Source: a bacterium
Lineage (GTDB): Bacteria > Patescibacteriota > Minisyncoccia > Phycocordibacterales > UBA2100
DNA: 64,000 nt
Direction of reading: 5' to 3'
NCBI GenBank assembly: GCA_016789445.1
Contig: JAEUQT010000002.1
Span: 138,321 to 202,320 of the forward strand
In this document: one piece after another, positions 1-64,000 of the stretch
Numbering within the stretch: the first letter of the stretch is position 1
How the letters are laid out: every line of letters begins with the position of its first letter
Program-made: the position numbers and the translations under genes
The notes under the pieces: generated by a model
What the model was told of the DNA's origin: nothing
Databases searched by the model: none
The model's input: the letters and a program-made list of their open reading frames with translations, nothing else

Positions 1-3000
1 GCGTCGGCGATATCCTCTATGCTGACTCGACGGGCTCACTGGCGAAGCTCCCGATCGGCGGCGCAGGAACGGTCCTCAAAGTGCAGGGAGGTCTCCCGTC
101 ATGGCAGACGGACCTCACCTCGGGCGGCGGTGGCGGTGCGACGGCATGGTCGACGACGACCGATTCCTTGGCAATCTATCCGACCGACACGACCGATGTT
201 CTCATCGTCGGCTCCAATGCGACTGCTACAACTAATAGCATCTTTGAGGTCTTCGGCCGCTCGTACTTCTCCAACAACGTTGGCATTGGAACCACTTCTC
301 CGGGCTCGATGCTCGCCGTTTCCGGCAACATCCTCGCGAATCGCATTACTGGTGCATTCTTCACCGCGACATCCACGACCGCATCCGTCTTCCCATACGC
401 ATCCACGACGGCACTTAGTGCGACGACACTCTGTCTCGCGTCTGACTGCCGCACCTCGTGGCCGACGGATTCGGAATTCTCCACTACATCCGCAGATTAC
501 TGGAAGACACAGCGTGATTTCTTCAGCACCACCTCCGCCTCATACTTCTCCTCCATCGGCCTCGCGTGGTCCACGACCTCAGCGAACTACTATCTTTCGC
601 AGAACGGCGCGCTCGGCTTCTCAACGACCTCGAATGACTACTGGATGTCGCAGAGGAATTTCTTCTCGACGACGAGTGCGAACTACTGGTCGTCGCTCGG
701 TCTCGGTTTCAGCACCTCGTCTGCAGATGCATGGAAGGACCAGCGGAACTTCTTCTCGACTACGTCCGCCTCATATTTCCTCTCGCAGAATCAGGGTAAC
801 GCGTTTTCGACGACGAGCGCGAACTATTGGGAGACCCAGCAGACCGTACGCACTGCAGACGATCTCACCAACAACTCGATCGAAGACCTGCAGGACGTTG
901 CCGCCATGACCGAGAACTACGGCGATCTCCTCTATTGGAATGGTTCCAGCTGGGCTGATATCGCGACATCGTCGCTCGGACTCCCGACATTCTCCGATCT
1001 CTCGTCGAATCTCGCCAACTACCTCACGCTCGCAGCGTGGTACGCCACCACCACCGATGGCCTCGATGAAGGCGCCACGAATCTTTACTTCACGAATACT
1101 CGAGTACAAACCTACCTCGATACCATCGGCAAGGGATACTTCTTCTCCACGACCAGCGCTGACGCATGGAAGGATCAAAGGAATTTCTTCTCGACGACAT
1201 CGGCGGCGTACTTCACGCACAGCTCGACCACGATCGCGAAGACCTACACGGCAAATGCCTTCACTGCACTCCAGACGTTCACGAACGCTTCGTCCACGCT
1301 TTTCTCCAGCGTCTATGCGTCATCGACTGTGGCAAACATCGGCACGCTTAACCTCGGTTCAGCACTTACGGTATCGAACGGTGGTACGGGTTCGACGACA
1401 CTCACCGGCCTCCTCAAAGGCAACGGTACCGGAGCGATTCAGACGGCAATTCCAGGTGTCGATTACCTCAACTCGACCGCAGGCGACTGGACCGGCACCT
1501 TCGACGGCCAGGAGGGAAGCTACTACCTCGCGAACTCGTTCTCCACATCGAGCGCCAACTACTGGCAGACTACGCGTGACTTCTTCTCCACGACGTCAGC
1601 TATCTACTTCGCACACTCGTCGACGACGATTCCGAAGACCTACACCGCCAATGTCTTCACGGCACTGCAGAACTTCGCAAACGCATCTTCAACGCTCTTC
1701 AGTGCGTCATATGCATCCACCACCAATCTCTTCGCAAACACGGCGTCTACGTCTAACCTCACCATCTCAGCTCTGCAGAATGGACTCTTGAAAGTGAGCG
1801 CCTCCGGCGTCGTCTCGCTCGCAGTTGCGGGGACTGACTACCAGAATTTCGCGTATCCGTTCCCGTCGAATGCAACGTCGACACTTATCAGCTTCAACGG
1901 AGGTCTCACCGCATATGCCTCTTCCACCGTCGGCAACGGCACGCAGACGGGAGGTCTCACCATTTCCGGCGGTGCCACCACGACGGGAAATGCGTACTTC
2001 GCGGGGAATGTGTCCACGGCGATGATACGCGATGGTTCGAACGTCAGTGCAGTGGATGTAGCTAACAGGAGATTGCTCAGTGCCAGCACGGTGAATGCGG
2101 TGGATTTCAGCTCTGCTTCAGCCATAAAGCTTTCCCAATACACGACGAACGGTTTCCTTACGGCTTCGGGTGGCAACGGAACATTGGCTGTCGATACGAC
2201 CCTCTCGACATCCGGTGGTAACCTCGGCGTCGGCACTTCTTCGCCGTATGCCAAGCTTTCCGTCGCAGGAGAAGTAGTAGGCGCGAACTTCACGGCGACC
2301 ACCACCGCAGTCAACACCTTCCCGACGCTTATGAGTACGAACGCATCGACGACGAACTTCGGCATTACGGGCGTCACGAGCGCGCTTCTCGCCACCGACG
2401 CGAACGGTCGCGTGTATGCGACGACCTCCATTTCCTCTGGTCTTCTCAACACCACCGGCGACTGGACCGGCACCTTCGATGGTCAGGAGGGAAGCTACTA
2501 CCTCGCGAACTCGTTCTCAACGACCAGCACGAACTACTGGCAGACGACGCGCAATTTCTTCTCGACGACCTCCGCTGATTACTGGGAGACGCAGCAGACC
2601 GCGCGTACCGCAGACGATCTAACGAACAACTCGATCGAAGACCTGCAGGATGTCGCAGCGATGACCGAGAACTACGGTGACCTCCTCGGATGGAACGGAA
2701 GTACGTGGACTGATTTTGCGACCTCATCACTCGGCATTGCGATCGGGGACACCACCGGAACGCTCAGCGTCTCGCGCGGCGGCACCGGCGCGACATCATT
2801 CACGTCCGGCTCTCTTATCTATGGTTCTGGCACTGGTGCACTTCAGAGTGTTGCAACTACAACAGCAACCATCGGCGGCTCGCTCACATACTCTGGCACC
2901 TTCGGGGCACTCGTCGGCGGTTCATCCGGTACGCTCTCGCTCAACCTCGGCAATGCGAATACGTGGACTGCACTGCAGCAGTTCGGTGCAGGCGCATCTT

Positions 3001-6000
3001 CAACGGCACTCTCCGCATACAACACGATCTCCGTCGGCCGCACCTCAACGACGACCATCCGTGGTGACAACCAGGCAAGCACGTTGCCATACGCATCCAC
3101 GACCGCAATCACTGCAACGACCGCAAGCACGACGAACCTCATCATCTCCGGCCTCAACAATGGTCTCTTGAAGGTGGGTAGCGATGGCACGGTCTCACTT
3201 GCGGTAGTGGGCACCGACTACTCAAATTTCGCCTATCCGTTCCCGTCAAATGCAACGTCGACACTCTTGAGCTTCAACGGTGGCCTTATTGCAAATGCGT
3301 CGTCGAGCATCAATGCGCTCTCATCCGTCATTTCGACTTCGACGAACGCTACGTCGACGACACTCTTCGCAACTGGCTCTCGATTCATCAATGCAACCAC
3401 GACGTCGCTCGGAATCAATAGCGAGACCTTCACCGACCTCACCGGCACCGGTCTTCAGAACGTCGGTGGCGCACTCACGCTCAACGCGACGGGCGACTGG
3501 ACCGGCACCTTCGACGGTCAGGAGGGAAGTTACTACCTCGCGAACTCGTTCTCCACGACATCGGCAGATTACTGGAAGACGCAGCGCGACTTCTTCTCCA
3601 CGACTTCAGCAGTCTACTTCGTCCATTCCTCGACAACAATTCCAAAGACCTACACGGCAAATGCATTCACGGCGCTCCAGAACTTCGCGAACGCATCCTC
3701 CACGCTCTTTAGCGCATCGTACGCATCCACGACTGCGCTCTTCGCCAACACTGCCTCAACCTCCAACCTCACCATCTCCGCACTCCAGAATGGTCTCTTG
3801 AAGGTGAATGCGTCTGGCGTCGTCTCGCTCGCTGTTGCGGGGACTGACTACCAGACCTTCGGGTATCTCTTCCCGAACAATGCAACATCAACATTGCTCG
3901 CATTTAACGGTGGTCTCACCACGACGAACGCAACATCTACAAACGCTACCTCCACTAACGCGCTCTTTGCAAATGTCGGTGCCTTCTCCGTCGCTCGTTT
4001 CGGTGCCACCGCCACTTCCTCATTCGCCTCCAACGGCGCACTCACGCTTGCAACCGCGCTCACCGTCCCGAACGGCGGTACGGGTGCAACTTCTTTCACC
4101 TCCGGCTCGCTCGTGTACGGCTCTGGCACCGGCGCACTGCAGAGTGTCGCGACGACAACAGCAACCCTCGGCGGCAGCCTCTCGTACACCGGCACCTTCG
4201 GCGCGCTCGTCGGTGGTTCGTCCGGCACGCTCTCACTCAACATGGGCAATGCGAACACCTGGACTGCACTCCAGACCTTCGCAAACGCATCCTCGACGCT
4301 CTTCTCCTCGAGCTACGCATCGACGACGAACCTCTTCGCTTTCAACGCATCTACGTCTAACCTCACCATTTCAAGCGTCTCGAATGCGCTCCTCAAGACG
4401 AATGCATCGGGCCAGGTCGCTGCAGCAGTCCTTGGCACCGACTACCAGAACTTCGCGTATCCATTCGGCCTCACCGGCAACGCTACTTCAAGTCTCACAC
4501 AGTTCAACGGCGGCCTCACGGCGTATGCATCATCGACGATCGGTGCAGGTGGCCAGACGACTGGTCTCACCATCTCCGGTGGCGCAACGACAACCGGCTA
4601 CCTCAAGGTACTCAGCACGGCAACTTCAAGCTTCGCCGGCCCGCTTGCTATCACCTCATCCGGCACCTCGACGTTCGCGAACGGCATTCAGCTCTCTGCA
4701 GGCTGCTTCCGCGATGTGAACGGCAACTGTATCGGCAATCAGGACCTCTCCGCATACGTAGACGGGGCAGGCAGCGGATCGACGAATCGCGTCGCCTACT
4801 GGAGCGACAGTAATACGCTGACCTCCGATGCCGACTTCTCATTCGATGGCACGACCGTAACGGCGCGTGATCTTCTCATCCAGCACACGGCGCCGATCCT
4901 CTCCTTGAACGATAGCGATACGACGGGAACCGACTTCCGTCTCGACGTTGCCGATGGTACGGCGACCTTCAAGGCCGATGTTTCGGCAGCGTTATCAAAC
5001 GAATACTTCGCCTGGACGACCAACAACAATGAGAAGATGCGCCTCATCGAATCCGGTAATCTCGGGATCGGCGCCACAGGTCCGCGCGGCCCGCTCGATG
5101 TCATGAAGAATGGCTTCGACGTGCTTGGTACGGGAGACTGGATGGAAGTCGGTCGTTTCGTTGATGCCTCAGAGCTGAAGGGTATCAGCCTCGGGTATGA
5201 CAACAATAACGATGTCTCGCTCATCGCCTCGCATACTGGCGGTGGTGGAGAGAACGGTCTCGCGTTCTGGACATACGGCGGCGGCTGGGGTGAGCGAATG
5301 CGCTTGAGCAATACCGGCAACCTCGGCATCGGCACGACGACGCCGCAGCACAAACTCTCGATTACCGATGCGTCTGCGCCCCAGCTCTCCCTCTCCGCCG
5401 GAGCAGGCATCGCTCAGTGGACCCAGCGCAACGCAGGAGGGAACTTGTACTTCTCGACGACGACCGTCGCGGGTACGGCAACAACGACCATCGCTGCACT
5501 CGAGATCTCCGGCTCAGGATTCGGCACCACCACCGTCCGCGGCCTCAACATCAATGGTCAGGCAACCTCGACATCGAATGTCGGCTTCAACCTCACCGCC
5601 GGCTGCTATGCGATCAATGGGATGTGTATCACCGGCGGTTCGGGCAGCTCGTTCGCGTATCCGTTCAGTCTCACCGGCAACGCGACCTCGACCCTGACTC
5701 AGTTCAATGGCGGATTGACGGCGTACGCATCCACTACTATCGGCGCGGGTGGCCAGACTACAGGCCTCACCATCTCCGGCGGCGCGACGACGACCGGTAA
5801 TGCGTACTTTGCGGGCAATGTCGGCATCAACGTCACCAATCCTTCCGACCGTTTGGAGGTAGAAGGCAATATCAACCTCCGCGACGGTTACCTGACGTTC
5901 CAGAATCAGGGCTATGGTCTCTTCGGGCTCTCGACACCAAGCCTGCTCTTCTACAACGACAGCATCCGCTTCGTGAATAGCGGCAATAATCTCATGCGCG

Positions 6001-9000
6001 TCACGAGCGGCGGCAGCGTCGGCATCGGCACCACCTCCCCGTATGCAAAGCTCTCCGTCGTCGGTGATGTGGTCGGCGCGCGCTTCATCGCTACCACCTC
6101 CACGGCAAGCATCTTCCCGTATGCATCCACGACGGCACTCTCAGCGGCAACACTCTGCCTCACGGGTGATTCCTGCATCGCAGCGTGGCCGACCGGAGGT
6201 GGTGCAGCGTATCCGTTCAGTCTCACCGGTAACGCCACCTCGACCCTGACTCAGTTCAACGGCGGTCTTACCGCATATGCTTCCTCGACAATCGGCGACG
6301 GTACGCAGACCGGAGGACTTATGATTTCTGGAGGTGCAACGACGACCGGAAATTCTTATACGGGGGGTGATGCATATTTCGCAACGAAAGTCGGAATCGG
6401 GACATCTGATCCCGATCTCGTTACTTCAAATCTGACCATAGTCGGGTCGTCTGTATCGCAGAAAATCATCGATAATACCTCGGATTTCATCGCGTTATCG
6501 AAATTAAACCTTGTTGCAGGAGAGACTTTGCCCGTTGATCTAATAATTGCAGCGCAGCGCAGCGCAGCATTTCCCACCTTGGAGTTTGGTGTAATTGGTA
6601 CGCTCTCGAATCATAATCTCGTGTTTGCAACAAATGACGTAGGTCGACTTACAGTTACTGCTGGTGGCAATGTGGGTATTGGTACGACATCGCCGTCTTC
6701 ATTGCTTACTGTATTTTCCACCACATCGCCACAGCTCTCTCTCTCGGCGGGTGGAGGAATCGCCCAATGGACTCAGCGCAACGCGGGTGGCAACCTCTAC
6801 TTTTCTACAACGACACTAGACGGCCTTGCTACCACTTCCCTTGCGGCTCTCTCTATTCGAGGTGCGACAGGTAATGTGGGCGTAGGAACTTCGTCACCGG
6901 GCACGCTCTTCTCGATCGGTAATACCAACGGCGTTAACTTCACTACAGCTACCACAACCTTCGGTGGTACGGGCGGCATTGATTTGCGCAATGGCGGATG
7001 CTTCGCTATCAACGGCACCTGCATCGGCGCAGGTGGAGCAGGAGATGGTGTCGGCAACTGGTTCACCGGCACGACGAACTTCAATGCGGTTGCCAGCGCA
7101 ACGACGACACCGATCTGGCTCCAGAGTGGCGCGAATCTCTTCGCATCATCGACAGTGCGCTTCGGTAACGCCGGTGTCAGTGAGTTCTTCTACAACTCGT
7201 CCATCGGCAACCTCGGTCTTGGCACCACCACGCCGTTTGCCACGCTCCAGATCGCAACGACGACTGGCAAGAATCTCATTCTTTCTGACAGCGGCGCAGG
7301 CATCAACTTGAAGCATTGGCTCTTCTCCTCACGAGGTGGCAATTTCTACATCGGCACCACAACCGATCTCTATGCATCTTCCACCATTGCAGCGCTCACG
7401 CTCAACACCAATGGCAACCTTGGTGTCGGTACCACGACACCGTATGCGAAGCTCTCCGTCGTTGGTGGCGTCGCTGCACAGTACTTCAACTCAGACAGCT
7501 CGACGGCGACCTCCACGTTTGCGGGAGGCCTCAACGTCGGGAATGGTGCGCTTAAATATGATTACTCTGCAGGTCTCACAACCATCCAGAATCTTGCCAT
7601 CGGTGCCATCAATTTCGACGCTGACGGTGGCATTCTCTCGTGGGTAGACATGCCGGTGACTTCGAGCGCAGCCGTGGGAACCGTTGAGAGCTACTCGGCA
7701 CAGATCGATGGTACTTCCATCCTCACCGTCTACAGCGAATCGGACGGTATCGGTGGCATCAAGGCGACCAGCACCAAGATCGGTATCGGTACGACGACGC
7801 CGTTTGCAAAGCTCGCGATCCAGGCTTCCGACGTGCAGACCGCTCCACTTTTCGAGATCGCTTCTACTTCGAGTGCCACGAAGTTCCTCTCGGTTTCGGG
7901 TACCGGCTTCGGCACCACCACCCTCTCGGGCCTCAACATCTCCGGCAGCGCAACCTCCACCTCGAACGTCGGCTTCAACATCACGGCGGGGTGCTATGCG
8001 ATCAATGGGACATGTATTACTGGCGGCGGAGGCGGGGGCTCCGGCGGGGGCTCGTGGTCCACGACAACCTCGCCAGTCTCTGGCCAATTGGTGAATTATC
8101 CGAACAATGCCACGGATGTCGTTGCGATTGGCTCCAACTCGACGACGACCGCAGAATACTGGTTCGATCCGAATGCGGGCATTTCATATCTTTCTGGAAA
8201 TGTTGGTATTGGTACACTGAATCCTGTATCTTCACTTGATTTGGGTCCCGCTGCGAATGGTCGGGGTATCGCATGGGGAGGTTCTTCCGGTAACGCGAAC
8301 TACAGCAATATTTTTTCTTCTTACAGCGCAGCCGCTCTAGTACTTGCCACTGGACTTCGTGCATCAACGACCGCGGATGTTTATGAGTCCAGTTACGGGT
8401 CTTCCATCTCACGCACCGCAATCCGCTTGAACCCGTACGGTTCAAACGCGGCTGGCTCAATTCAATTCTTTACTGACAGCGCTTCTACCGTAGCCGTTGG
8501 GACTGCGATCACTCCCACGGAGCGCGTACGTATTACTTCGAATGGTAGTGTCGGGATCGGAACAAGCACGCCGTATTCTGGAGACAAACTCAGTATCTAT
8601 GGTGGCAATTTGTTCCTAGCGAATACTGCGTCCCCGCAAATCGTTCTCAAGGATGGAGCTCAATCTAACAATAATCTAGGGTTCCGCTCGGTTTCGGGCG
8701 TCGGTCACATTGGACGATTCAATGATAACGGTACTCTTTCCAGCTTTATACAGACCTTCGATCTGTCGACTGGCAATGTCGGCATAGGTTCGACGACCCC
8801 ATGGGCGAAACTCTCTATCGTCGGTAACCATGGCGTGCCGCAGTTCATCATCGCGACGACGTCTGATCCGAGCGGCGACGGTCAGCATCCGCTCTTCATC
8901 GTCCAGTCGACGACCACCGGTAAGCTCAACTACCAGCGTATCGGTATGGGTACGACGACGCAGTGGGGCAATGCAGGCCTGCGCGATCAGCTCGTCGTCG

Positions 9001-10778
9001 ATGGCCGTATCTACTCAACGTGGCGCTATGCAGGATGTGATTTCGTCGGTGGACATTTGATCGCTGCACTTACCGCAGATACCGCGAACATTTGTGGACC
9101 ATTTTCTCTCGACGTTCAAGGAACAGTGACGGGTGCGCTGGGTAGCGCGTATCCGGGCTACTATGAAATTCGCTCAGGAACGGTACCTGCTGCGAATACC
9201 GGTACGACATTCCGCACGTGGAGTCATGTTGCTTCAGCAACCACTAGCCCGGTCATGGAGGCGATGGTGCAAATCGGATCCGCCGGTACCGCAACGACAA
9301 CGCCACTTTTCCTGGTCGGTTTCTACGGATCTGCCTCAGCGACGACTACGCCAGGTACGTTACCGGCCAATGGTGCGTACTTCGTGGCAACTTCGACAAA
9401 TACGTGGCGACTCGTTACGCGTAAAACCAATGTAGAGACCATAACTGAAACGAATATCGCAACCTCATCGACCTCATTCCAGCGATTGCGTGTCGAATTG
9501 ACCGATCAGGAGGCAACGTTCTTAATCAACGGTAATGTTGTTGGTCGCCATACGACGAATATTCCAGTAACGTACCTATCTCCTGCTGCGATTTCCGCTA
9601 TCGCAGGCGGTGCGACTTCGGGCACATCGGGCGCGTACCGCGCCCTCCGTATCTCGATGTTCCGTCTTTGGGTGGATGATCCGCCAGGAGGAATACCGAT
9701 TGCTGGAACAGAAACAGAAGATCTCTATAACCCAATAGAAGGTGCCGACATAGCAGAAGCGTATCTTGCAGACGATCCTATCAAGATGATCGAAGGCAGT
9801 ATCGTTTCGAACGCAACGACCACCGAAAAACATATTGCACGTTCGAGCGGACGTTACGATTCCCAGATCATGGGCGTTATCGCAACGTCGCCAAAGATGG
9901 TGCTTGGTGATGAAGCTTCGACCACTGTACGCGTCGGCATGGTCGGTCGCGTGCCGGTCATCGTTTCCCTCGAAAACGGCGCTATCAAGAAGGGTGATCC
10001 GATCACTTCATCGAGCCTGACAGGTATCGGTATGAAGGCTCGCCGCCCAGGTGCTATCGTCGGCAAGACGCTCGCAGGATTCGACCCGGAGAATAATGTC
10101 GGCTTCTGCGATGCTGAACTTAAGCAGCAGCTCACCGACCTGGGCGTACCGGTCACCTCAGATGGCTGCTACGGCCGCGTGCTCGTCGTCCTCGACGCCG
10201 ACTTCGACATGGGCATCGGCGAGATCGTCCAAGACGCGATGACGAGCGTTACCAACTTCGGCGCGGCGATGGACGAGCTCATGAATACTGCCTTCGAGAA
10301 GGGCGCTGAGCTCACCAAGTTCGTCGTCGGCAACATTGTCGCGAAGATCGCCATCATCGAGAAGCTCTTCGTCAGGGAGACCCACACCCAGACGCTCTGC
10401 ATCGCAGATGGCAACGGCTCGGAAACCTGCATTACCAAGGCGCAGCTCGACGCGCTCCTGGCGAATGTCGGCGTCGCTGCCGCTCCGCAGCCCCAGTCGG
10501 AACCAGAAACGCAGCCGGACGGAAACGCATCCTCGACGCCACCGACCGATTCTGGAAATGGTAATGCAAGCTCAACCCCGCCTGTCGCTGAAGGCGGTTC
10601 GGGCTCCGACGGCTCGTCCGAAGCGCCAGAAGAGACACCTCCTGCAGAAGAAGCTCCTGCCGAGGAACCGCCTACCGAAGCAGAGCCTGAGCCGACCCCT
10701 CAGCCGGAACCCGAACCAGCCCCGGCTCCTGAAGAGCCAGCAGGAGAGACCGCAGCCGCCCCTGAAGATGCTTCATAG
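1..10778 (+). CDS. giant repetitive cell-surface protein, 5'-partial (frame open to window edge; >3,590 aa)
   Basis: The frame is open from nt 3, and the ORF-track start at 81 is an internal GTG. The protein is S/T/G/A-rich with hierarchical repeats. FSTTSA(D/N)YW(K/E)TQR(D/N)FFSTTSA units occur many times. GDWTGTFDGQEGSYYLANSFSTTS occurs at ~1480, ~2450 and ~3490, giving a 1-kb period. FAYPF(P/S)..NATSTL..FNGGLTAYASSTIG occurs at ~1850, 4450, 5650 and 6210, and GIGTTSPYAKLSVVG units recur. A non-repetitive C-terminal domain (~9650-10480) is followed by a Pro/Glu-rich tail. Confidence 0.8.
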   Translation, partial: VGDILYADSTGSLAKLPIGGAGTVLKVQGGLPSWQTDLTSGGGGGATAWSTTTDSLAIYPTDTTDVLIVGSNATATTNSIFEVFGRSYFSNNVGIGTTSPGSMLAVSGNILANRITGAFFTATSTTASVFPYASTTALSATTLCLASDCRTSWPTDSEFSTTSADYWKTQRDFFSTTSASYFSSIGLAWSTTSANYYLSQNGALGFSTTSNDYWMSQRNFFSTTSANYWSSLGLGFSTSSADAWKDQRNFFSTTSASYFLSQNQGNAFSTTSANYWETQQTVRTADDLTNNSIEDLQDVAAMTENYGDLLYWNGSSWADIATSSLGLPTFSDLSSNLANYLTLAAWYATTTDGLDEGATNLYFTNTRVQTYLDTIGKGYFFSTTSADAWKDQRNFFSTTSAAYFTHSSTTIAKTYTANAFTALQTFTNASSTLFSSVYASSTVANIGTLNLGSALTVSNGGTGSTTLTGLLKGNGTGAIQTAIPGVDYLNSTAGDWTGTFDGQEGSYYLANSFSTSSANYWQTTRDFFSTTSAIYFAHSSTTIPKTYTANVFTALQNFANASSTLFSASYASTTNLFANTASTSNLTISALQNGLLKVSASGVVSLAVAGTDYQNFAYPFPSNATSTLISFNGGLTAYASSTVGNGTQTGGLTISGGATTTGNAYFAGNVSTAMIRDGSNVSAVDVANRRLLSASTVNAVDFSSASAIKLSQYTTNGFLTASGGNGTLAVDTTLSTSGGNLGVGTSSPYAKLSVAGEVVGANFTATTTAVNTFPTLMSTNASTTNFGITGVTSALLATDANGRVYATTSISSGLLNTTGDWTGTFDGQEGSYYLANSFSTTSTNYWQTTRNFFSTTSADYWETQQTARTADDLTNNSIEDLQDVAAMTENYGDLLGWNGSTWTDFATSSLGIAIGDTTGTLSVSRGGTGATSFTSGSLIYGSGTGALQSVATTTATIGGSLTYSGTFGALVGGSSGTLSLNLGNANTWTALQQFGAGASSTALSAYNTISVGRTSTTTIRGDNQASTLPYASTTAITATTASTTNLIISGLNNGLLKVGSDGTVSLAVVGTDYSNFAYPFPSNATSTLLSFNGGLIANASSSINALSSVISTSTNATSTTLFATGSRFINATTTSLGINSETFTDLTGTGLQNVGGALTLNATGDWTGTFDGQEGSYYLANSFSTTSADYWKTQRDFFSTTSAVYFVHSSTTIPKTYTANAFTALQNFANASSTLFSASYASTTALFANTASTSNLTISALQNGLLKVNASGVVSLAVAGTDYQTFGYLFPNNATSTLLAFNGGLTTTNATSTNATSTNALFANVGAFSVARFGATATSSFASNGALTLATALTVPNGGTGATSFTSGSLVYGSGTGALQSVATTTATLGGSLSYTGTFGALVGGSSGTLSLNMGNANTWTALQTFANASSTLFSSSYASTTNLFAFNASTSNLTISSVSNALLKTNASGQVAAAVLGTDYQNFAYPFGLTGNATSSLTQFNGGLTAYASSTIGAGGQTTGLTISGGATTTGYLKVLSTATSSFAGPLAITSSGTSTFANGIQLSAGCFRDVNGNCIGNQDLSAYVDGAGSGSTNRVAYWSDSNTLTSDADFSFDGTTVTARDLLIQHTAPILSLNDSDTTGTDFRLDVADGTATFKADVSAALSNEYFAWTTNNNEKMRLIESGNLGIGATGPRGPLDVMKNGFDVLGTGDWMEVGRFVDASELKGISLGYDNNNDVSLIASHTGGGGENGLAFWTYGGGWGERMRLSNTGNLGIGTTTPQHKLSITDASAPQLSLSAGAGIAQWTQRNAGGNLYFSTTTVAGTATTTIAALEISGSGFGTTTVRGLNINGQATSTSNVGFNLTAGCYAINGMCITGGSGSSFAYPFSLTGNATSTLTQFNGGLTAYASTTIGAGGQTTGLTISGGATTTGNAYFAGNVGINVTNPSDRLEVEGNINLRDGYLTFQNQGYGLFGLSTPSLLFYNDSIRFVNSGNNLMRVTSGGSVGIGTTSPYAKLSVVGDVVGARFIATTSTASIFPYASTTALSAATLCLTGDSCIAAWPTGGGAAYPFSLTGNATSTLTQFNGGLTAYASSTIGDGTQTGGLMISGGATTTGNSYTGGDAYFATKVGIGTSDPDLVTSNLTIVGSSVSQKIIDNTSDFIALSKLNLVAGETLPVDLIIAAQRSAAFPTLEFGVIGTLSNHNLVFATNDVGRLTVTAGGNVGIGTTSPSSLLTVFSTTSPQLSLSAGGGIAQWTQRNAGGNLYFSTTTLDGLATTSLAALSIRGATGNVGVGTSSPGTLFSIGNTNGVNFTTATTTFGGTGGIDLRNGGCFAINGTCIGAGGAGDGVGNWFTGTTNFNAVASATTTPIWLQSGANLFASSTVRFGNAGVSEFFYNSSIGNLGLGTTTPFATLQIATTTGKNLILSDSGAGINLKHWLFSSRGGNFYIGTTTDLYASSTIAALTLNTNGNLGVGTTTPYAKLSVVGGVAAQYFNSDSSTATSTFAGGLNVGNGALKYDYSAGLTTIQNLAIGAINFDADGGILSWVDMPVTSSAAVGTVESYSAQIDGTSILTVYSESDGIGGIKATSTKIGIGTTTPFAKLAIQASDVQTAPLFEIASTSSATKFLSVSGTGFGTTTLSGLNISGSATSTSNVGFNITAGCYAINGTCITGGGGGGSGGGSWSTTTSPVSGQLVNYPNNATDVVAIGSNSTTTAEYWFDPNAGISYLSGNVGIGTLNPVSSLDLGPAANGRGIAWGGSSGNANYSNIFSSYSAAALVLATGLRASTTADVYESSYGSSISRTAIRLNPYGSNAAGSIQFFTDSASTVAVGTAITPTERVRITSNGSVGIGTSTPYSGDKLSIYGGNLFLANTASPQIVLKDGAQSNNNLGFRSVSGVGHIGRFNDNGTLSSFIQTFDLSTGNVGIGSTTPWAKLSIVGNHGVPQFIIATTSDPSGDGQHPLFIVQSTTTGKLNYQRIGMGTTTQWGNAGLRDQLVVDGRIYSTWRYAGCDFVGGHLIAALTADTANICGPFSLDVQGTVTGALGSAYPGYYEIRSGTVPAANTGTTFRTWSHVASATTSPVMEAMVQIGSAGTATTTPLFLVGFYGSASATTTPGTLPANGAYFVATSTNTWRLVTRKTNVETITETNIATSSTSFQRLRVELTDQEATFLINGNVVGRHTTNIPVTYLSPAAISAIAGGATSGTSGAYRALRISMFRLWVDDPPGGIPIAGTETEDLYNPIEGADIAEAYLADDPIKMIEGSIVSNATTTEKHIARSSGRYDSQIMGVIATSPKMVLGDEASTTVRVGMVGRVPVIVSLENGAIKKGDPITSSSLTGIGMKARRPGAIVGKTLAGFDPENNVGFCDAELKQQLTDLGVPVTSDGCYGRVLVVLDADFDMGIGEIVQDAMTSVTNFGAAMDELMNTAFEKGAELTKFVVGNIVAKIAIIEKLFVRETHTQTLCIADGNGSETCITKAQLDALLANVGVAAAPQPQSEPETQPDGNASSTPPTDSGNGNASSTPPVAEGGSGSDGSSEAPEETPPAEEAPAEEPPTEAEPEPTPQPEPEPAPAPEEPAGETAAAPEDAS

Positions 10779-44227: not shown

Positions 44228-44293
44228 AGTGTCCGAGGTATACCACGAATACTGTCGTTTGACAATACCTCGTTTGTGGGGCAGAATATTTGA

Positions 44294-44578
44294 GTGAATC
44301 CCGTTAGAGATGACGGTAGTTGGTATACGTACGTGCTCCGTAGTCTAAGAGATGGAGAAACATACACCGGCTTCACCAACGATTTGCGGAAGCGCTTCAA
44401 GCAGCATAACGACGGGCTCACGTCTTCAACCAAGGGACGTCGTCCCTTTGAGCTGATATATTACGAAATGTGTAGAAACGAGAGTGACGCACGGTCGAGA
44501 GAATTATTTCTAAAATCTGGCATGGGTAAACGCTATTTGCGAAATCGCTTGAAGCGCTTCCTATCTCTAACGGGATGA
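44294..44578 (+). CDS. small GIY-YIG nuclease-family protein (YhbQ/UPF0213-like)
   Basis: WYTYVLRS..GETYTGFTNDLRKRFKQHN...G..R.FELIYYE. GTG start inside the left TIR. The TGA stop overlaps the sortase ATG (ATGA). Confidence 0.7.
   Translation: MNPVRDDGSWYTYVLRSLRDGETYTGFTNDLRKRFKQHNDGLTSSTKGRRPFELIYYEMCRNESDARSRELFLKSGMGKRYLRNRLKRFLSLTG
44298..44576 (+). mobile_element. TIR-bounded GIY-YIG mini-element (candidate autonomous copy)
   Basis: A perfect 14-bp inverted repeat, ATCCCGTTAGAGAT (44298-44311) and ATCTCTAACGGGAT (44563-44576), exactly brackets a 94-aa GIY-YIG ORF. Related TIR pairs without an ORF occur at 61114/61219 and 63872/63941. Confidence 0.55.
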
Positions 44579-45219
44579 AAACCGCACATTCCAAGCCTCC
44601 GATGAGTGTCTTTCTGGCGGCGACCGTCGTCATCTTCTTCCTCGCGCTCTCCGCAGCCGACTCCGTCGGCTTCGTTCCGTATTACATCGACGGCACACCG
44701 CCGCGACCGAAGGTTACGGTCGAAAGTCTTGCGGAAATCCCGCAGGAGGAAGTCGCTCTTCCCGAAGAAGAGGAAGTCGGTGTCGCGCCGACGCGCATCC
44801 GTATCCCGGCGATCGATCTCGATCTTCCGGTACTCAATCCGCAGACCCGCGACATCGCGGCGCTCGATGCGGTACTCAAAGACGGCCCTGCACGCTACAT
44901 GGATTCCGCCCTGCTTGGCGAGAAGGGCAATGTCTTGATCTTCGGTCATTCTTCGCATCTGCCGGTCGTACACAACCAGATGTACAAGGCGTTCAACCGT
45001 GTGCCGGACCTCAAAGAGGGCGACACCATCGAAGTCGAGGGTGGCGGAAAGGTCTACACGTACCGCGTCCTCGGCGTGAAGGGCGTCGATGCGGAAGAAG
45101 GCATCATCGATCTTTCCCGAGAGGGGAATCGCCTCACGATCGTCACCTGCGACACGCTCACCGCCAAGACCGCCCGCTTCGTCCTCGACGCCGAACTCAT
45201 CGGTTCCTACGATCTCTAA
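44575..45219 (+). CDS. sortase-family transpeptidase
   Basis: N-terminal TM helix. Catalytic His context LIFGHS, Cys in LTIVTCD (the TLxTC motif), and a downstream Arg (TARFVLDAEL). Confidence 0.75.
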   Translation: MKTAHSKPPMSVFLAATVVIFFLALSAADSVGFVPYYIDGTPPRPKVTVESLAEIPQEEVALPEEEEVGVAPTRIRIPAIDLDLPVLNPQTRDIAALDAVLKDGPARYMDSALLGEKGNVLIFGHSSHLPVVHNQMYKAFNRVPDLKEGDTIEVEGGGKVYTYRVLGVKGVDAEEGIIDLSREGNRLTIVTCDTLTAKTARFVLDAELIGSYDL

Positions 45220-61085: not shown

Positions 61086-61113
61086 CCATTCCTTGCTACA
61101 ATAGCTCTCGTGT

Positions 61114-61232
61114 ATCCCGTTAGAAATCGCGGACGCACGAACTTCATGTTGCATTCAAAGGTCGGGCTTTATCCCTATAGCAAAGTACGGTGCGGAGACT
61201 CGAACGTGTCCGCGTCCTATTTCTAACGGGAT
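61114..61232 (+). mobile_element. ORF-less miniature element with GIY-YIG-element-type TIRs (MITE-like)
   Basis: ATCCCGTTAGAAAT (61114-61127) and ATTTCTAACGGGAT (61219-61232) form a perfect 14-bp IR. The last two bases provide the A and T of the smc ATG start codon. Confidence 0.55.
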
Positions 61233-63435
61233 GTACCTCAGATCGATCGAGCTCAGCGGTTTCAAGTCATTCGGCAAGAAGACCGAGCTGGTGTTCGGTT
61301 CCCGCATCGCCGCGATCGTGGGGCCGAATGGTTCCGGTAAATCGAACGTCGCCGACGGCTTCCGCTTCGTCCTTGGCGAGCAGTCGATGAAATCGATGCG
61401 CGGCAAGCGCGGCGAAGACATGATCTGGGGAGGTTCCCCTGCGCTTCCGCGCATGAATCGCGCGGCGGTGAAGCTCGTCTTTGATAATTCCAAACGTCTG
61501 CTCGACATCGATTTCTCCGACGTCATCATCGAGCGCGTCGTGCATCGTGATGGCGCGAATGAGTATCTCCTCAATGGTTCGGTAGTGCGCCTCAAGGATG
61601 TCATCCGGCTCCTCGCCGGTGCTAACATCGGTGGCTCGGGCTACCAGATCATTTCCCAGGGCGAAGCAGATCGCATTCTCAATGCATCTCCCAAAGAGCG
61701 ACGCGAGATGGTGGAGGATGCGCTTGGGCTGAAGCTGTACCAGCACAAGAAAGCAGAATCGGAGCGTAAATTGGCCGAGACCGCGGTGAATATCGATAAG
61801 ACGAAATCTCTCCGCAGGGAACTCGCGCCACACCTAAAATTCTTGCAGACCCAGGTCGAGAAGATCGAGAAAGCTCGCGAGATGAAGGCTGACCTCGCGT
61901 ATAAACTCTCTGATTACCTCGCGCGTGAGAATGCCTATCTCGCGATGGAGGCGACAAGGCTTACCGACGAATCAAAGGAACGCGAACACGAGATCAAACA
62001 GCTGGAGCATCGTCTGAAAGATGCTCGTGCGGTGAAGGGGGATGGTCCGCAAGAGAATCGCTCGCTCCCGCTTCTGCAGAAGTTGGAATCGCTCCAGAAT
62101 GAACTAAGTAACGCTCGCCGGAAGCGCGAGGAGATCGTGCGCGAGCTTGGCCGCGCCGAGGGTGCGCTTGAAGCGGTTGCCATCACCGTCGAGACAGGCA
62201 TACCGGCACCGCAGGTGCGTGAATTCGTACGCGAGATCACGGATTCCATCGAACGCGCCGAAGCGCAGGATGATATCGCCGGAATCCGCGCGCTTCTCTC
62301 GCAGCTCCGTGGACGTATCCATGCGTTCATTGACGGTCTCTCTGGTGCGGCACCTGTCACTCATGAAGAAACAAGGCGGGAAGTCGAGCGTCTAACCGAG
62401 TCCCTTTCCAAGGCCGAAGCGGAAGAATCGCGTCTCGCAAAAGAAATGGAGCACGTGCGCAGCGAGATCACCAAAGCGCGTGAGGCGTCATTTGCCGCAG
62501 AGCGCGAAGAGGTGCGTGTCGAAGCGCAACTGCGCGAATCGCAATCCAAGATGATGGCGCTGCGCAGCGAGTTCGAGCATTCCAAGGATCTGAAACGTCG
62601 TTTCGAGGAAGAGGTTCGTGAAGGTATAGCCCTCTTGGGTACGGCGTTCGAGGGATGGAATACGCACGAGGTCCCGCAGGGCGCTCTTTCGGAAGATCGC
62701 CGCGAGCAGGAGAAACGCCGCCGTGAGATCGAGCGATTGAAGATCAAGATCGAGGAAGCGGGTGTCGGTGGTGGTGATGCGGTCGTGCGTGAATACAACC
62801 AGACGATCGAACGCGATGCATTCCTTCTCAAGGAACTCGACGATCTCGAGAAGTCTGCTCGTGCGCTGCAGGATCTCATCGCGGAATTGGAGAAGACCAT
62901 CGACGCTCGATTCACCGAAGGCTTGAAGCACATCAATGAGGCGCTCAAGCTCTTCTTCGCGAAGCTTTTCGGCGGCGGCGAAGCGAAGCTCGAGGTGGAA
63001 GAGCCGAAGCGTGTCCGACGCGCTCGCGGTGAAGAGATCGACGAGGAAGAAGCGGTCGTCGACGAAGAGGAGGAGCTCTACGCAGGCCTCTCGATCGCGG
63101 TCTCGCTTCCGCGCAAGAAGGTGCGCGGATTGGAAGTGCTCTCCGGTGGTGAGCGCGCACTCACCTCGATCGCACTCATCTTTTCCATGTCGCAGGTGAA
63201 TCCGCCGCCCTTCCTGATCCTCGACGAGACCGATGCCGCCCTTGATGAGGCCAATTCCAAGCGCTACGCGGACATGATCATGGAGCTGGGGAAGAAGAGC
63301 CAGCTCATCGTCATCACCCACAACCGCTCGACCATGTCGGCGGCAGGGGAGCTCTACGGGGTCACCATGAGCCAGGACGGGGTGTCCAAGATCCTCTCCG
63401 TGAAGCTCGAGGAGGCCGAGCGGGTGGCAAAATAG
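61231..63435 (+). CDS. smc: SMC-family chromosome-associated ATPase, short hinge-less form
   Basis: The N-terminus (SIELSGFKSFGKKTELVFGSRIAAIVGPNGSGKSNV) is classic for SMC. C-terminal signature LSGGERALTSIAL..LILDETDAALD. Only 734 aa, with no recognisable hinge. Confidence 0.6.
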   Translation: MYLRSIELSGFKSFGKKTELVFGSRIAAIVGPNGSGKSNVADGFRFVLGEQSMKSMRGKRGEDMIWGGSPALPRMNRAAVKLVFDNSKRLLDIDFSDVIIERVVHRDGANEYLLNGSVVRLKDVIRLLAGANIGGSGYQIISQGEADRILNASPKERREMVEDALGLKLYQHKKAESERKLAETAVNIDKTKSLRRELAPHLKFLQTQVEKIEKAREMKADLAYKLSDYLARENAYLAMEATRLTDESKEREHEIKQLEHRLKDARAVKGDGPQENRSLPLLQKLESLQNELSNARRKREEIVRELGRAEGALEAVAITVETGIPAPQVREFVREITDSIERAEAQDDIAGIRALLSQLRGRIHAFIDGLSGAAPVTHEETRREVERLTESLSKAEAEESRLAKEMEHVRSEITKAREASFAAEREEVRVEAQLRESQSKMMALRSEFEHSKDLKRRFEEEVREGIALLGTAFEGWNTHEVPQGALSEDRREQEKRRREIERLKIKIEEAGVGGGDAVVREYNQTIERDAFLLKELDDLEKSARALQDLIAELEKTIDARFTEGLKHINEALKLFFAKLFGGGEAKLEVEEPKRVRRARGEEIDEEEAVVDEEEELYAGLSIAVSLPRKKVRGLEVLSGGERALTSIALIFSMSQVNPPPFLILDETDAALDEANSKRYADMIMELGKKSQLIVITHNRSTMSAAGELYGVTMSQDGVSKILSVKLEEAERVAK

Positions 63436-63866: not shown

Positions 63867-63871
63867 TATTG

Positions 63872-63954
63872 ACCCCGTTAGAGAGTGCGTCGGCAGAGCT
63901 TGCTGTTCATTAATGAATCGCGATATCCGGATGAGATATTCTCTCTAACGGGGT
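63872..63954 (+). mobile_element. ORF-less miniature element with GIY-YIG-element-type TIRs (MITE-like)
   Basis: ACCCCGTTAGAGAG (63872-63885) and CTCTCTAACGGGGT (63941-63954) form a perfect 14-bp IR. It lies 6 nt after the rpsP stop. Confidence 0.5.
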
Positions 63955-64000
63955 TGACGCTATGGTGCGAAGGACGCACCATATACTGAATTACCGGTTA

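Follow-up and report, generated by a model that had tools for sequence, protein, structure and literature searches.

We found that the window, the whole 64,000-nucleotide stretch of DNA analysed here, contains three short elements with shared terminal inverted repeats (TIRs). They are 277, 117 and 81 bp long; one carries a gene for a 94-aa GIY-YIG protein and two are gene-less. The evidence supports that these are mobile DNA elements, and our best explanation, which we consider probable, is that they belong to one family of DNA transposable elements of very small size, for which the GIY-YIG protein is the putative mobilising nuclease. This role is suggested by association, the gene being the only one inside the repeats. 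The genes downstream are sortase (copy 1), SMC and then ribosomal protein S16. The features, in window coordinates, are as follows.

44259..44287, + strand: promoter-like site (TTGACA, 17 nt, CAGAAT), 6 nt before the GTG of the GIY-YIG ORF
44294..44578, + strand: GIY-YIG nuclease ORF, 94 aa, single domain, predicted UPF0213/Slx1-like fold
44295..44298, + strand: copy 1 left duplication TGAA; together with G44294, it gives the GTG that formerly started sortase and now starts the ORF
44299..44575, + strand: copy 1, ORF-bearing element of 277 bp, absent at orthologous sites
44299..44311, + strand: copy 1 left 13-bp TIR, TCCCGTTAGAGAT
44563..44575, + strand: copy 1 right 13-bp TIR, ATCTCTAACGGGA; its final A doubles as the first base of the sortase ATG
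44575..45219, + strand: host sortase gene, start codon rebuilt by the insertion of copy 1
44576..44579, + strand: copy 1 right duplication TGAA; its TGA terminates the GIY-YIG ORF and its TG completes the sortase ATG
61111..61114, + strand: copy 2 left duplication TGTA; with G61110 it forms the former GTG start of smc
61115..61231, + strand: copy 2, ORF-less miniature of 117 bp, TIRs at 61115-61127 and 61219-61231
61232..61235, + strand: copy 2 right duplication TGTA; the smc ATG (61231-61233) consists of the element's final A plus TG
63869..63872, + strand: copy 3 left duplication TTGA, 2 nt past the rpsP stop codon
63873..63953, + strand: copy 3, ORF-less miniature of 81 bp, C...G-ended type, TIRs at 63873-63885 and 63941-63953
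63954..63957, + strand: copy 3 right duplication TTGA; it rebuilds the TTGAC motif conserved 3′ of rpsP in relatives

The preliminary description of this DNA had placed perfect inverted-repeat pairs at 44298-44311/44563-44576, 61114-61127/61219-61232 and 63872-63885/63941-63954, and all three pairs are present there. Their length of 14 bp is not the conserved one: across 75 distinct copies the repeat measures 13 bp, and the 14th base on each side is part of a flanking 4-bp repeat with the pattern T..A. These flanking direct repeats (TGAA, TGTA and TTGA) had been overlooked, and the ends of the ORF had been assigned to the wrong side of the boundary. The GTG start (44294-44296), thought to lie inside the left TIR, is just outside the repeat (44299-44311) in duplicated host sequence, and the TGA stop (44576-44578) is located in the right duplication instead of the right TIR. 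In the full-size form, the left repeat thus encodes the first codons of the gene, the right repeat its last codons and the duplication its stop. The interior of copy 2 is an extended GC-rich stem, and a 38-codon open frame runs through this copy from the old GTG to a TAA ending 4 nt upstream of the smc ATG. When the elements were folded as single-stranded DNA (ssDNA), the two repeats paired at the base of the structure; the RNA folds were stable, with z-scores of -3.2 to -6.6.

The 13-bp TIR consensus of the three window elements is (T/C)CCCGTTAGA(G/A)(A/G)N. Its core, CCCGTTAGA, is far more frequent in the window than expected by chance, with six matches compared to 0.30 expected and none of 100 shuffles reaching six, and these matches are exactly the six repeat arms of the three elements. 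From 80 homologous loci fetched from genomes, we obtained 82 ORF-bearing repeat pairs scoring at least 12/14. A GIY-YIG gene without TIRs was almost never encountered among these loci. The ORF fits the repeats at its two ends in nearly all of the 82 copies, and no other gene was ever found within them. Arm positions 1-13 match in 72-75 of the 75 distinct ORF-bearing copies and position 14 in 42; in the miniatures, positions 1-13 match in 32-33 of 33. Covariation was observed at positions 1 (T/C/A), 12 (A/G/C) and 13 (T/C/A), and paired-change variants occur in locus L024 (CCTGTTACAG/CTGTAACAGG) and locus L013 (ACCG/CGGT).

Perfect 4-bp duplications flank 50 of the 82 ORF-bearing copies and 25 of the 33 miniatures, compared to 2/81 and 2/33 in shifted controls. 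Approximately one-third of the ORF-bearing copies have no perfect duplication, and in a distant subfamily (L173 and L175) the repeats are present and a duplication is not evident. Among the non-TGAA elements, 24 of 44 showed perfect duplications, with 2.5 expected from permutation (maximum of 8 in 2000). Twelve different 4-mers are duplicated, such that the length is fixed at 4 bp and the sequence differs between insertions. The base before the duplication is A in 45/50 cases, and the duplication itself reads T (50/50), G (47/50), A (49/50) and A (43/50). The preferred target is A followed by TGAA, generally A or G followed by T-N-N-A, and most often comprises a start codon and the two bases after it, which lie at leaderless promoters or in the ATGA stop/start overlaps of operons. 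This start-codon preference could reflect selection on survivors rather than targeting.

An empty site with a single 4-mer was found for all three window positions in the closest relatives, whose neighbouring proteins are 87-98% identical. At the copy 1 locus, the CARDB and sortase genes of genomes with sortase orthologues (87-98% identity) are direct neighbours with no GIY-YIG gene in between, and the sequence reads ...atttgcaATGAAgacggc, with TGAA only once. The closest smc loci (L085 and L086) read GTGTAC... without the insert of copy 2 (...gGTGTACTTGAAATCC), and L085 contains one TTGAC 3′ of rpsP, which makes it a clean empty site for copy 3. Another locus, L134, was downgraded as an empty site for copy 3; because it retains TATTGACCCCGT, it may be a deletion remnant. 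Because the three copies are absent from such close relatives, they are recent. Other genomes yielded two further filled/empty pairs, L057 versus L051 and L072 versus L019; the members of each pair differ by an exact 75-bp indel composed of 71 bp plus the 4-bp duplication.

In L001/L005, the gene for a 90%-identical GIY-YIG protein has an ABC transporter gene on one side and a capsule-synthesis-like gene on the other, and two contigs of one MAG carry copies that are 95% identical (L039 and L040), a pair for which binning errors are possible, as for the other part of the support that comes from MAGs. One of these contigs (L040) contains four elements in approximately 5 kb. Overall, the elements adjoin many unrelated genes, with several copies per genome and a patchy distribution (8 elements in approximately 600 kb of smc loci), and four genomes carry an element at the site before topA. 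A search of the viral contig collection gave no relative, and spread by phages was rejected. The preliminary description had read the window's repeats as a mobile TIR element family and had named three checks that might refute this, on empty sites in relatives, on the frequency of the TIR against chance and on genes without TIRs; every one of them favoured mobility.

The combination of an ORF-bearing copy with miniatures, proposed from the window, proved to be general. We found approximately 40 ORF-less copies with the same ends, 33 in the flanks of the 80 loci and 8 more in smc loci that had been fetched without regard to GIY-YIG genes. Element sizes are bimodal, with one class of 47-134 bp (plus one element of 228 bp) and another of 273-286 bp. 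The miniatures are MITE-like in that they keep only the repeats and a hairpin-forming interior. An origin as internal deletions of the ORF-bearing copy was mostly rejected, the interiors being unrelated to the ORF; a possible exception (L040, 8558-8678) retains MNPVRD...LSLTG in frame. No larger master element with the same ends was present in the range of 0.7-5 kb in 1.93 Mb from approximately 150 genomes. Some miniatures interrupt coding sequence in frame: five of 59-71 bp are located inside long ORFs and have a length that, plus 4, is divisible by 3, a rule to which a sixth one of 66 bp (L054) is the exception.

The 94-aa ORF matches the Pfam GIY-YIG family (E = 8.8e-18) with one domain at residues 10-76, and the GIY-YIG residues Y13, Y24, G26, R32, H38 and E58 are invariant or nearly so. 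The predicted structure is confident (pLDDT 86.6) and forms a single compact fold that most resembles UPF0213 and the nuclease domain of Slx1, with 1zg2 as the best Foldseek match and Slx1 next. Profile searches matched 1zg2 (UPF0213 protein BH0048, E = 2.5e-9) and 1ywl (E = 1.5e-4). BH0048 and Bacillus subtilis YazA, which is 39% identical to the window protein, are its nearest detectable proteins, and the solved and plasmid relatives detectable for it are UPF0213 proteins. Both sequence and fold thus uphold the initial assignment as YhbQ-like (UPF0213, YhbQ-YazA). The protein is spread over several phyla with its catalytic residues intact. Unlike UPF0213 yazA, which adjoins trmNF in Bacillus, the gene has a wide range of unrelated neighbourhoods and is missing from close relatives. 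No NCBIfam family scored above its cut-off (the group I intron endonuclease model TIGR01453 reached 19.6 bits versus a cut-off of 56), no I-TevI-type DNA-binding extension or extra domain was found in the window protein, and its exact sequence has no record in the assembly index. Because Rfam and ARAGORN scans of the window found only a tRNA, we rejected a known structured RNA.

The right end had been proposed to supply the start codon of the following gene, and its terminal A plus TG indeed forms the host start in 63 of the 82 ORF-bearing copies and 18 of the 33 miniatures. Upstream of 81 ORF-bearing copies, we found 16 operon-type ATGA overlaps and 33 -10-like boxes at a distance of 4-12 nt. 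In the empty-site relatives of copy 1 (L165-L172), a TTGACA/CAGAAT promoter precedes the sortase ATG by 7 nt; in the window, the promoter-like site 6 nt before the GTG suggests a leaderless transcript that is now read by the GIY-YIG ORF. Because the old start codon and promoter remain ahead of the element after insertion, the nuclease ORF is, judging from the sequence, probably expressed from host signals. The right repeat, CTCTAACGGGA, together with TGA provides stops in two frames (TAA and TGA) at the rebuilt ATG, and the third frame reads through. Translation from the old start codon to the rebuilt ATG may couple translation of the host gene to the element. If the TTGAC 3′ of rpsP is taken as a -35 box, the spacing is 16-17 nt in more distant relatives and 22-23 nt in the window and L085; because of the latter spacing, the promoter reading of the window's TTGAC is tentative.

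In the mechanism that we propose, the GIY-YIG nuclease would recognise the stem formed by the two repeats in ssDNA and cut at the junction between element and flank, by analogy to the Ssn enzymes (Chenal et al., Nat Commun 2025, PMC11893778). In the target, the nuclease would likewise make two cuts staggered by 4 nt, each 5′ of a T on its strand, and host enzymes would carry out joining and gap filling. Upon insertion, the terminal A and the duplicated TG rebuild the host ATG. GIY-YIG nucleases hydrolyse DNA, and we know of no strand-joining activity among them; because of this, the integration step is without a known catalyst. A more far-reaching version, to which we give about an even chance, is that the family constitutes a new transposon class with a 94-aa single-domain GIY-YIG protein as its sole protein. 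With a size of approximately 0.28 kb, such an element would be smaller than any other self-sufficient transposable element known to us. It would recognise its ends as an ssDNA stem and insert two bases past start codons, taking over the promoter and start codon of the host gene, whose own start is rebuilt by the duplication. It would further be the source of the miniature families, some members of which would be translated in frame inside host proteins.

The elements might instead be mobilised by an unlinked transposase, with the GIY-YIG gene as a passenger that aids persistence, for example if its product cuts empty sites and repair then restores the element by copying. TnpB has this role for IS200/IS605. 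That strand joining is not known for GIY-YIG enzymes speaks for such an enzyme, as do the 13-bp inverted repeat and 4-bp duplication, which are typical of DDE-type elements, and the miniatures in smc loci fetched irrespective of GIY-YIG genes. However, no larger element with the same repeats occurs in the 1.93 Mb from approximately 150 genomes, the ORF fits both repeats in nearly all 82 copies as the only gene inside, and Patescibacterial genomes are small with few transposases. We therefore regard this arrangement as unlikely. Somewhat less likely still is a domesticated Ssn-like system in which mobility is mostly historical and the repeats and nuclease serve the host by restricting or shaping incoming ssDNA or by tuning expression at gene starts. 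The intact catalytic residues over several phyla and the four genomes with an occupied topA site would suit such a role, and Neisseria Ssn modulates natural transformation via its repeat, for which its authors have suggested a domesticated IS-like unit (PMC11893778). The recent window copies, absent from relatives with 87-98% identical neighbours, the 95% identity of the copies from the same MAG, the in-frame interruption of coding sequence by some miniatures and the patchy occurrence in smc loci all argue against it, although ongoing mobility is compatible with domestication.

That nothing transposes at all, the elements being either fixed regulatory or RNA hairpins or a single-site, free-standing GIY-YIG homing endonuclease, is very improbable. 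The RNA folds are stable and GIY-YIG homing endonucleases are well known, but a fixed regulatory hairpin was rejected because the orthologous positions are empty in relatives of all three copies; moreover, the 4-bp flanking repeats vary by site, the elements adjoin many unrelated genes and no Rfam family matched. The homing reading is opposed by the lack of an I-TevI-type DNA-binding extension and the low score with the group I intron endonuclease model (19.6 versus 56 bits).

To our knowledge, the classification of DNA transposons rests on transposase chemistry, namely, DDE, HUH, serine, tyrosine or Cas1. A GIY-YIG-based element would, if true, add a class and mean that an element of less than 300 bp can carry its own enzyme. 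Empty sites, duplications and miniatures are lines of evidence that the Ssn work, as far as available to us, lacked, and they support the view that repeat-flanked genes for single-domain GIY-YIG proteins are mobile elements. Insertion at start codons, the rebuilt ATG and the repeat-borne stops would point to a way in which a parasite can persist in the very compact genomes of Patescibacteria while costing its host little. For annotation, such elements may account for unusual short ORFs and for peptides inserted internally or at the N-terminus of annotated proteins. If its putative activity holds, the nuclease, with its 13-bp stem and 5-bp target both defined, could serve as a laboratory tool.

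Among known systems, GIY-YIG homing endonucleases (I-TevI, phage T4 Seg) share the catalytic domain, the small size and the nature of a selfish mobile gene. Unlike the present elements, they have a separate DNA-binding domain, are copied by repair into one cognate site and make no terminal repeats, duplications or miniature copies; here, the insertion sites are many and unrelated. Rickettsia palindromic elements likewise are short, palindromic and translated in frame within protein genes, whereas most elements described here lie at gene starts; we know of no enzyme assigned to the Rickettsia elements. REP/RAYT and IS200/IS605 resemble our family in having a small nuclease gene between inverted copies of a genome-spread hairpin repeat and, probably, in the action on ssDNA hairpins. 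However, RAYT and TnpA belong to the HUH/Y1 enzymes, which pass through a covalent intermediate and are able to rejoin DNA, whereas the protein here is of the GIY-YIG type, and IS200/IS605 elements have neither the target duplication nor the TIRs found here.

The closest counterpart is the Ssn family (CDD cd10448), single-domain 94-aa GIY-YIG ssDNA nucleases with hairpin-repeat flanks in a layout that its authors called IS-like (PMC11893778). According to the paper's description, with which we compared our elements, they share with Ssn (SRM/NTS repeats) the single 94-aa domain and an inverted-repeat motif that lies on both gene flanks and many times elsewhere in the genome. Ssn enzymes are described as binding the hairpin repeat in ssDNA only and cutting upstream of it, approximately 3 nt from the 28-nt motif and not at the stem base (PMC11893778), which counts against the mechanism that we propose. 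The beginning of the stem is alike (NTS ...GTCAT-TCCCGCG versus TTCA-TCCCGTTAG on the bottom strand of the right end), which we treat as a lead only. Each Ssn flank is described as having its own hairpin of 20-50 nt, unlike the single long-range inverted repeat found here, the arms of which are the ends of the ORF. The published SRM motif, searched as HGTCWYN(0-2)YYVSBRHN(0-5)WNVSBRGN(0-2)RNCYNB, a pattern that matches the published NTS, had no match within 300 bp of the 80 genes (70 kb) or in the window. The Ssn paper (PMC11893778) mentions neither duplications nor Patescibacteria, and in the parts consulted it reports no empty sites, miniature derivatives or start-codon targeting. The preliminary claim that a short TIR-bounded element with a GIY-YIG gene had not been described is thus softened by the IS-like Ssn genes with hairpin repeats, but it stands in that we found no GIY-YIG-driven cut-and-paste element of this kind in the literature searched. 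Literature searches on GIY-YIG transposases, GIY-YIG with MITEs, UPF0213/YhbQ and the repeat sequence returned nothing relevant.

Finally, TIRs with a short duplication, a full-size form accompanied by ORF-less miniatures that share its ends only, presence/absence polymorphism and gene-adjacent insertion affecting expression are all features of classical TIR insertion sequences and their MITEs (IS5, IS630, Neisseria Correia elements). The family differs from these in that its sole gene encodes a 94-aa hydrolytic nuclease rather than a DDE, HUH, serine or tyrosine enzyme, in that its full-size element measures approximately 0.28 kb compared to roughly at least 0.7 kb for an ordinary insertion sequence, and in that its ORF overlaps both repeats and borrows the start codon of the host.

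The preliminary description had given three inverted-repeat pairs, and their positions in the window proved exact. The repeat core CCCGTTAGA occurs six times in the 64 kb compared with 0.30 expected, a count that no shuffle reached, and the six matches are the six arms (terminal inverted repeats) of three elements, which are bounded by 4-bp direct repeats as follows:

44299-44575, copy 1, with the GIY-YIG ORF, at the sortase start; duplication TGAA, left 44295-44298, right 44576-44579
61115-61231, copy 2, without an ORF, at the smc start; duplication TGTA, left 61111-61114, right 61232-61235
63873-63953, copy 3, without an ORF, after rpsP; duplication TTGA, left 63869-63872, right 63954-63957

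The 94-aa product of the copy 1 ORF (44294-44578) contains a Pfam GIY-YIG domain (E 8.8e-18), and the ORF has the sortase gene downstream and a divergent gene with a CARDB domain upstream; copies 2 and 3 adjoin the genes for SMC and ribosomal protein S16. Rfam matched no family at any of the three element sites. Elsewhere in the window, a single open reading frame of 3,565 codons (81-10778, + strand) would encode a giant protein.

The repeats were compared across 80 loci encoding GIY-YIG homologues and loci from other look-ups (L numbers below). The repeat is 13 bp long: the two arms agree at positions 1-13 in 72-75 of 75 distinct ORF-bearing copies, but at position 14 in only 42 of 75. Positions 2-10 (CCCGTTAGA) are nearly invariant, whereas both arms covary at positions 1 (T/C/A), 12 (A/G/C) and 13 (T/C/A), and in the miniature copies at position 11 as well; even rare variants alter both arms jointly (CCTGTTACAG/CTGTAACAGG in L024, ACCG/CGGT in L013). 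Of the 14 bp originally proposed, 13 therefore stand, and the remaining base is part of a T..A-type duplication; likewise, the GTG start and TGA stop that had been placed within the left and right repeats lie in the duplicated host bases instead. The 4-bp direct repeat, which lies outside the 13-bp repeats, is perfect in 50 of 82 ORF-bearing copies and 25 of 33 miniature copies, compared with 2/81 and 2/33, respectively, in shifted controls. With the TGAA cases excluded, 24 of 44 copies had perfect duplications, whereas permutation gave an expectation of 2.5 and no more than 8 in 2000 rounds.

Relatives lack the element at the orthologous position for all three copies. At the copy 1 site, L165-L172 (sortase orthologues, 87-98% identity) have the CARDB and sortase genes adjacent without a GIY-YIG gene, and L168 reads tttgacaataccctgtttgtggggcagaatatttgcaATGAAgacggcaca where the window has ...ggggcagaatatttgaGTGAA, 277 bp and TGAAaaccgcaca. 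The copy 2 site is empty in the two closest smc loci, L085 (90% SMC identity) and L086 (88%), which read ...gcgGTGTACTTGAAATCC where the window has ...ctctcGTGTA, 117 bp and TGTACCTCAG; more distant lineages (L100, L104, L116 and L126) carry related miniature copies at the same smc start codon with the duplication TGTA or TGTT. The L126 element (3774-4001, 228 bp, duplication TGTA) is about twice the usual miniature size and may be a composite or nested insertion. At the copy 3 site, just one TTGAC follows rpsP in L085, and the corresponding TTGA in L115 is occupied by an element with repeats of the CCCCGTGAGAG type. In L134 (~2346-2375), rpsP is followed by TATTGACCCCGT and then host sequence; because this is the left junction of copy 3 without the remainder of the element, it may be a deletion remnant. 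Directly after copy 3, between the TTGAC motif and TATACT, lies a hairpin (GGTGCG-AAGGA-CGCACC, 63955-63990) that is conserved in L085, L134 and L115 and stretches the putative promoter spacer to 22-23 nt.

Two further filled/empty pairs (L057 vs L051, L072 vs L019) each differ by an exact 75-bp indel (71 bp + 4 bp). A 90%-identical nuclease occurs in an unrelated operon in L001/L005, one MAG carries copies 95% identical on two contigs, and L040 holds four elements inside ~5 kb. In four different genomes (L012, L023, L031 and L033; element ends at ~7065, 10282, 775 and 10282), an ORF-bearing element directly precedes the gene for DNA topoisomerase I (Toprim + Topoisom_bac), as would result from an old insertion that these genomes share or from a hot spot. 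Together, the empty sites, the duplication statistics and the other signs of movement are those by which transposable elements are usually recognized. That these are real mobile elements, forming a family marked by terminal repeats and a 4-bp duplication, is close to certain, and the initial proposal of a mobile element is supported.

The division into ORF-bearing and miniature copies likewise extends beyond the window. Repeat pairs in the 1.93 Mb surveyed bound segments of two sizes, 47-134 bp (plus one of 228 bp) and 273-286 bp, and none encloses 0.7-5 kb. The large class always contains the GIY-YIG ORF and no other gene, and the interiors of the small class are hairpin-forming and unrelated to the ORF. 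Miniature sizes recur (~47-51, 66-71, 101-111 and 117-124 bp), with cross-species members 82-90% identical. Five miniature copies of 59-71 bp lie in frame within long ORFs, as Rickettsia palindromic elements do, and in each the length plus 4 is divisible by 3:

L057, 4117-4187 (compared with L051, ~12480)
L036, 18642-18709
L069, 1421-1491
L072, 9735-9805
L117, 2514-2572

The L057 insert adds TPLEVAPPRSEGLATALRARLLTGF, 25 residues, to the tgt gene product relative to the empty orthologue.

The reconstructed target is A|TGAA (preceding base A in 45 of 50; duplication T 50, G 47, A 49 and A 43 of 50), and miniature copies also use TAAA, TGGA, TGTA, TTGA and TGCG. Insertion captures the host start signals and rebuilds the host ATG: as the preliminary description had noticed in the window, the right end supplies this codon, which consists of the element's final A plus TG in 63/82 ORF-bearing and 18/33 miniature copies. 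Of 81 ORF-bearing copies, 16 are preceded by a long ORF that terminates in an ATGA overlap and 33 by a -10-like box 4-12 nt ahead of the ATG. Because the same promoter-like TTGACA-17-CAGAAT ends 6 nt before the GTG of the nuclease ORF in the window and lies 7 nt before the sortase ATG at empty sites, the host promoter and former start codon appear to serve the nuclease ORF, whose message would be leaderless. In these Kaiserbacteria-like genomes, many genes have a -10 box of the TGnTACAAT type only 6-10 nt before the start codon, including the smc loci L085-L151 (~20 nt upstream of the start) and window positions 61088-61112 and 44259-44296, which points to leaderless mRNAs being common in them. 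Together with the TGA that follows it, the right repeat CTCTAACGGGA offers TAA in one frame, TGA in the second and a read-through into the rebuilt ATG in the third. In 12 of 23 miniature copies at gene starts, no stop interrupts the frame between the old start codon and one of these end points (chance, roughly estimated, ~20%), among them copy 2 with 38 codons and a TAA ending 4 nt before the smc ATG. Given only this estimate of chance, translational coupling of the host gene to the element is a plausible suggestion.

More than 2,900 homologues of the protein were found, mostly of 94 aa and from Patescibacteria, with a few from Omnitrophota and deltaproteobacterial MAGs. When 1.84 billion representatives were searched with a profile, 13,718 matched at E <= 1e-3, of which 2,595 reached E <= 1e-10 and 20 reached E <= 1e-30. 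Y13, Y24, G26, R32, H38 and E58 show little or no variation, and the confident structure model (pLDDT 86.6) is closest to UPF0213 BH0048 and the Slx1 nuclease domain. The protein ends, MNPVRD (N-terminal) and SLTG (C-terminal), are the translated repeats. Because the left repeat is retained even where the ATG lies downstream of it (e.g. L026, L037, L052 and L063), the constraint acts on DNA. A distant 87-aa subfamily with C-terminal YLTG (e.g. in a Verrucomicrobia MAG) also lies between inverted repeats, here of 12-13 bp (CCCCGTGAGATA), and showed no clear 4-bp duplication at the two loci examined, on contigs of 318-817 kb:

L173, 5983-6264
L175, 5982-6264

The CCCCGTGAGATA repeat type also bounds a miniature copy at the rpsP site in L115.

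The GIY-YIG nuclease is the likely but unproven driver of the element, and we infer that it moves it. In ssDNA folds, the two repeats pair at the stem base. Two copies of the self-complementary GAAGCGCTTC (K-R-F codons) within the ORF (44389-44403 and 44547-44561) pair as a second long-range stem; their conservation at the DNA level is not strict in other loci. The characterised Ssn enzymes, site-specific ssDNA nucleases with SRM hairpin repeats, are single-domain GIY-YIG proteins that bind the hairpin repeat in ssDNA only and cut upstream of it (Chenal et al., PMC11893778). Here, the T..A form of most duplications and the A|T or A|C junctions at either end fit a nuclease that would make nicks staggered by 4 nt on the two strands, each 5′ of a pyrimidine. 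As hydrolases, GIY-YIG enzymes would leave end joining to host ligation and gap repair. More speculatively, ATGAA at leaderless promoters would be single-stranded in the open-complex bubble, an idea that could account for neither the operon-internal sites nor copy 3.

In literature searches, neither a GIY-YIG transposase nor a description of this 13-bp repeat was found; to that extent the view that nothing similar had been described holds, but Ssn genes with an IS-like layout have been published. No match to the Ssn search pattern for SRM adjoins the GIY-YIG genes studied here. The Ssn paper makes no mention of duplications or Patescibacteria, and the passages covered here report no empty sites, miniature derivatives or start-codon targeting (PMC11893778). 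The chance that the family amounts to a new class of transposon is about even. The Ssn paper is the closest published work: it describes 94-aa GIY-YIG genes (CDD cd10448) with hairpin repeats flanking 42% of homologues, and its authors point out the IS-like layout and propose domestication (PMC11893778). Comparable systems also include TIR insertion sequences with MITEs, REP/RAYT and Rickettsia palindromic elements; both a GIY-YIG gene with flanking repeats and a TIR element with miniature derivatives are already known in kind.
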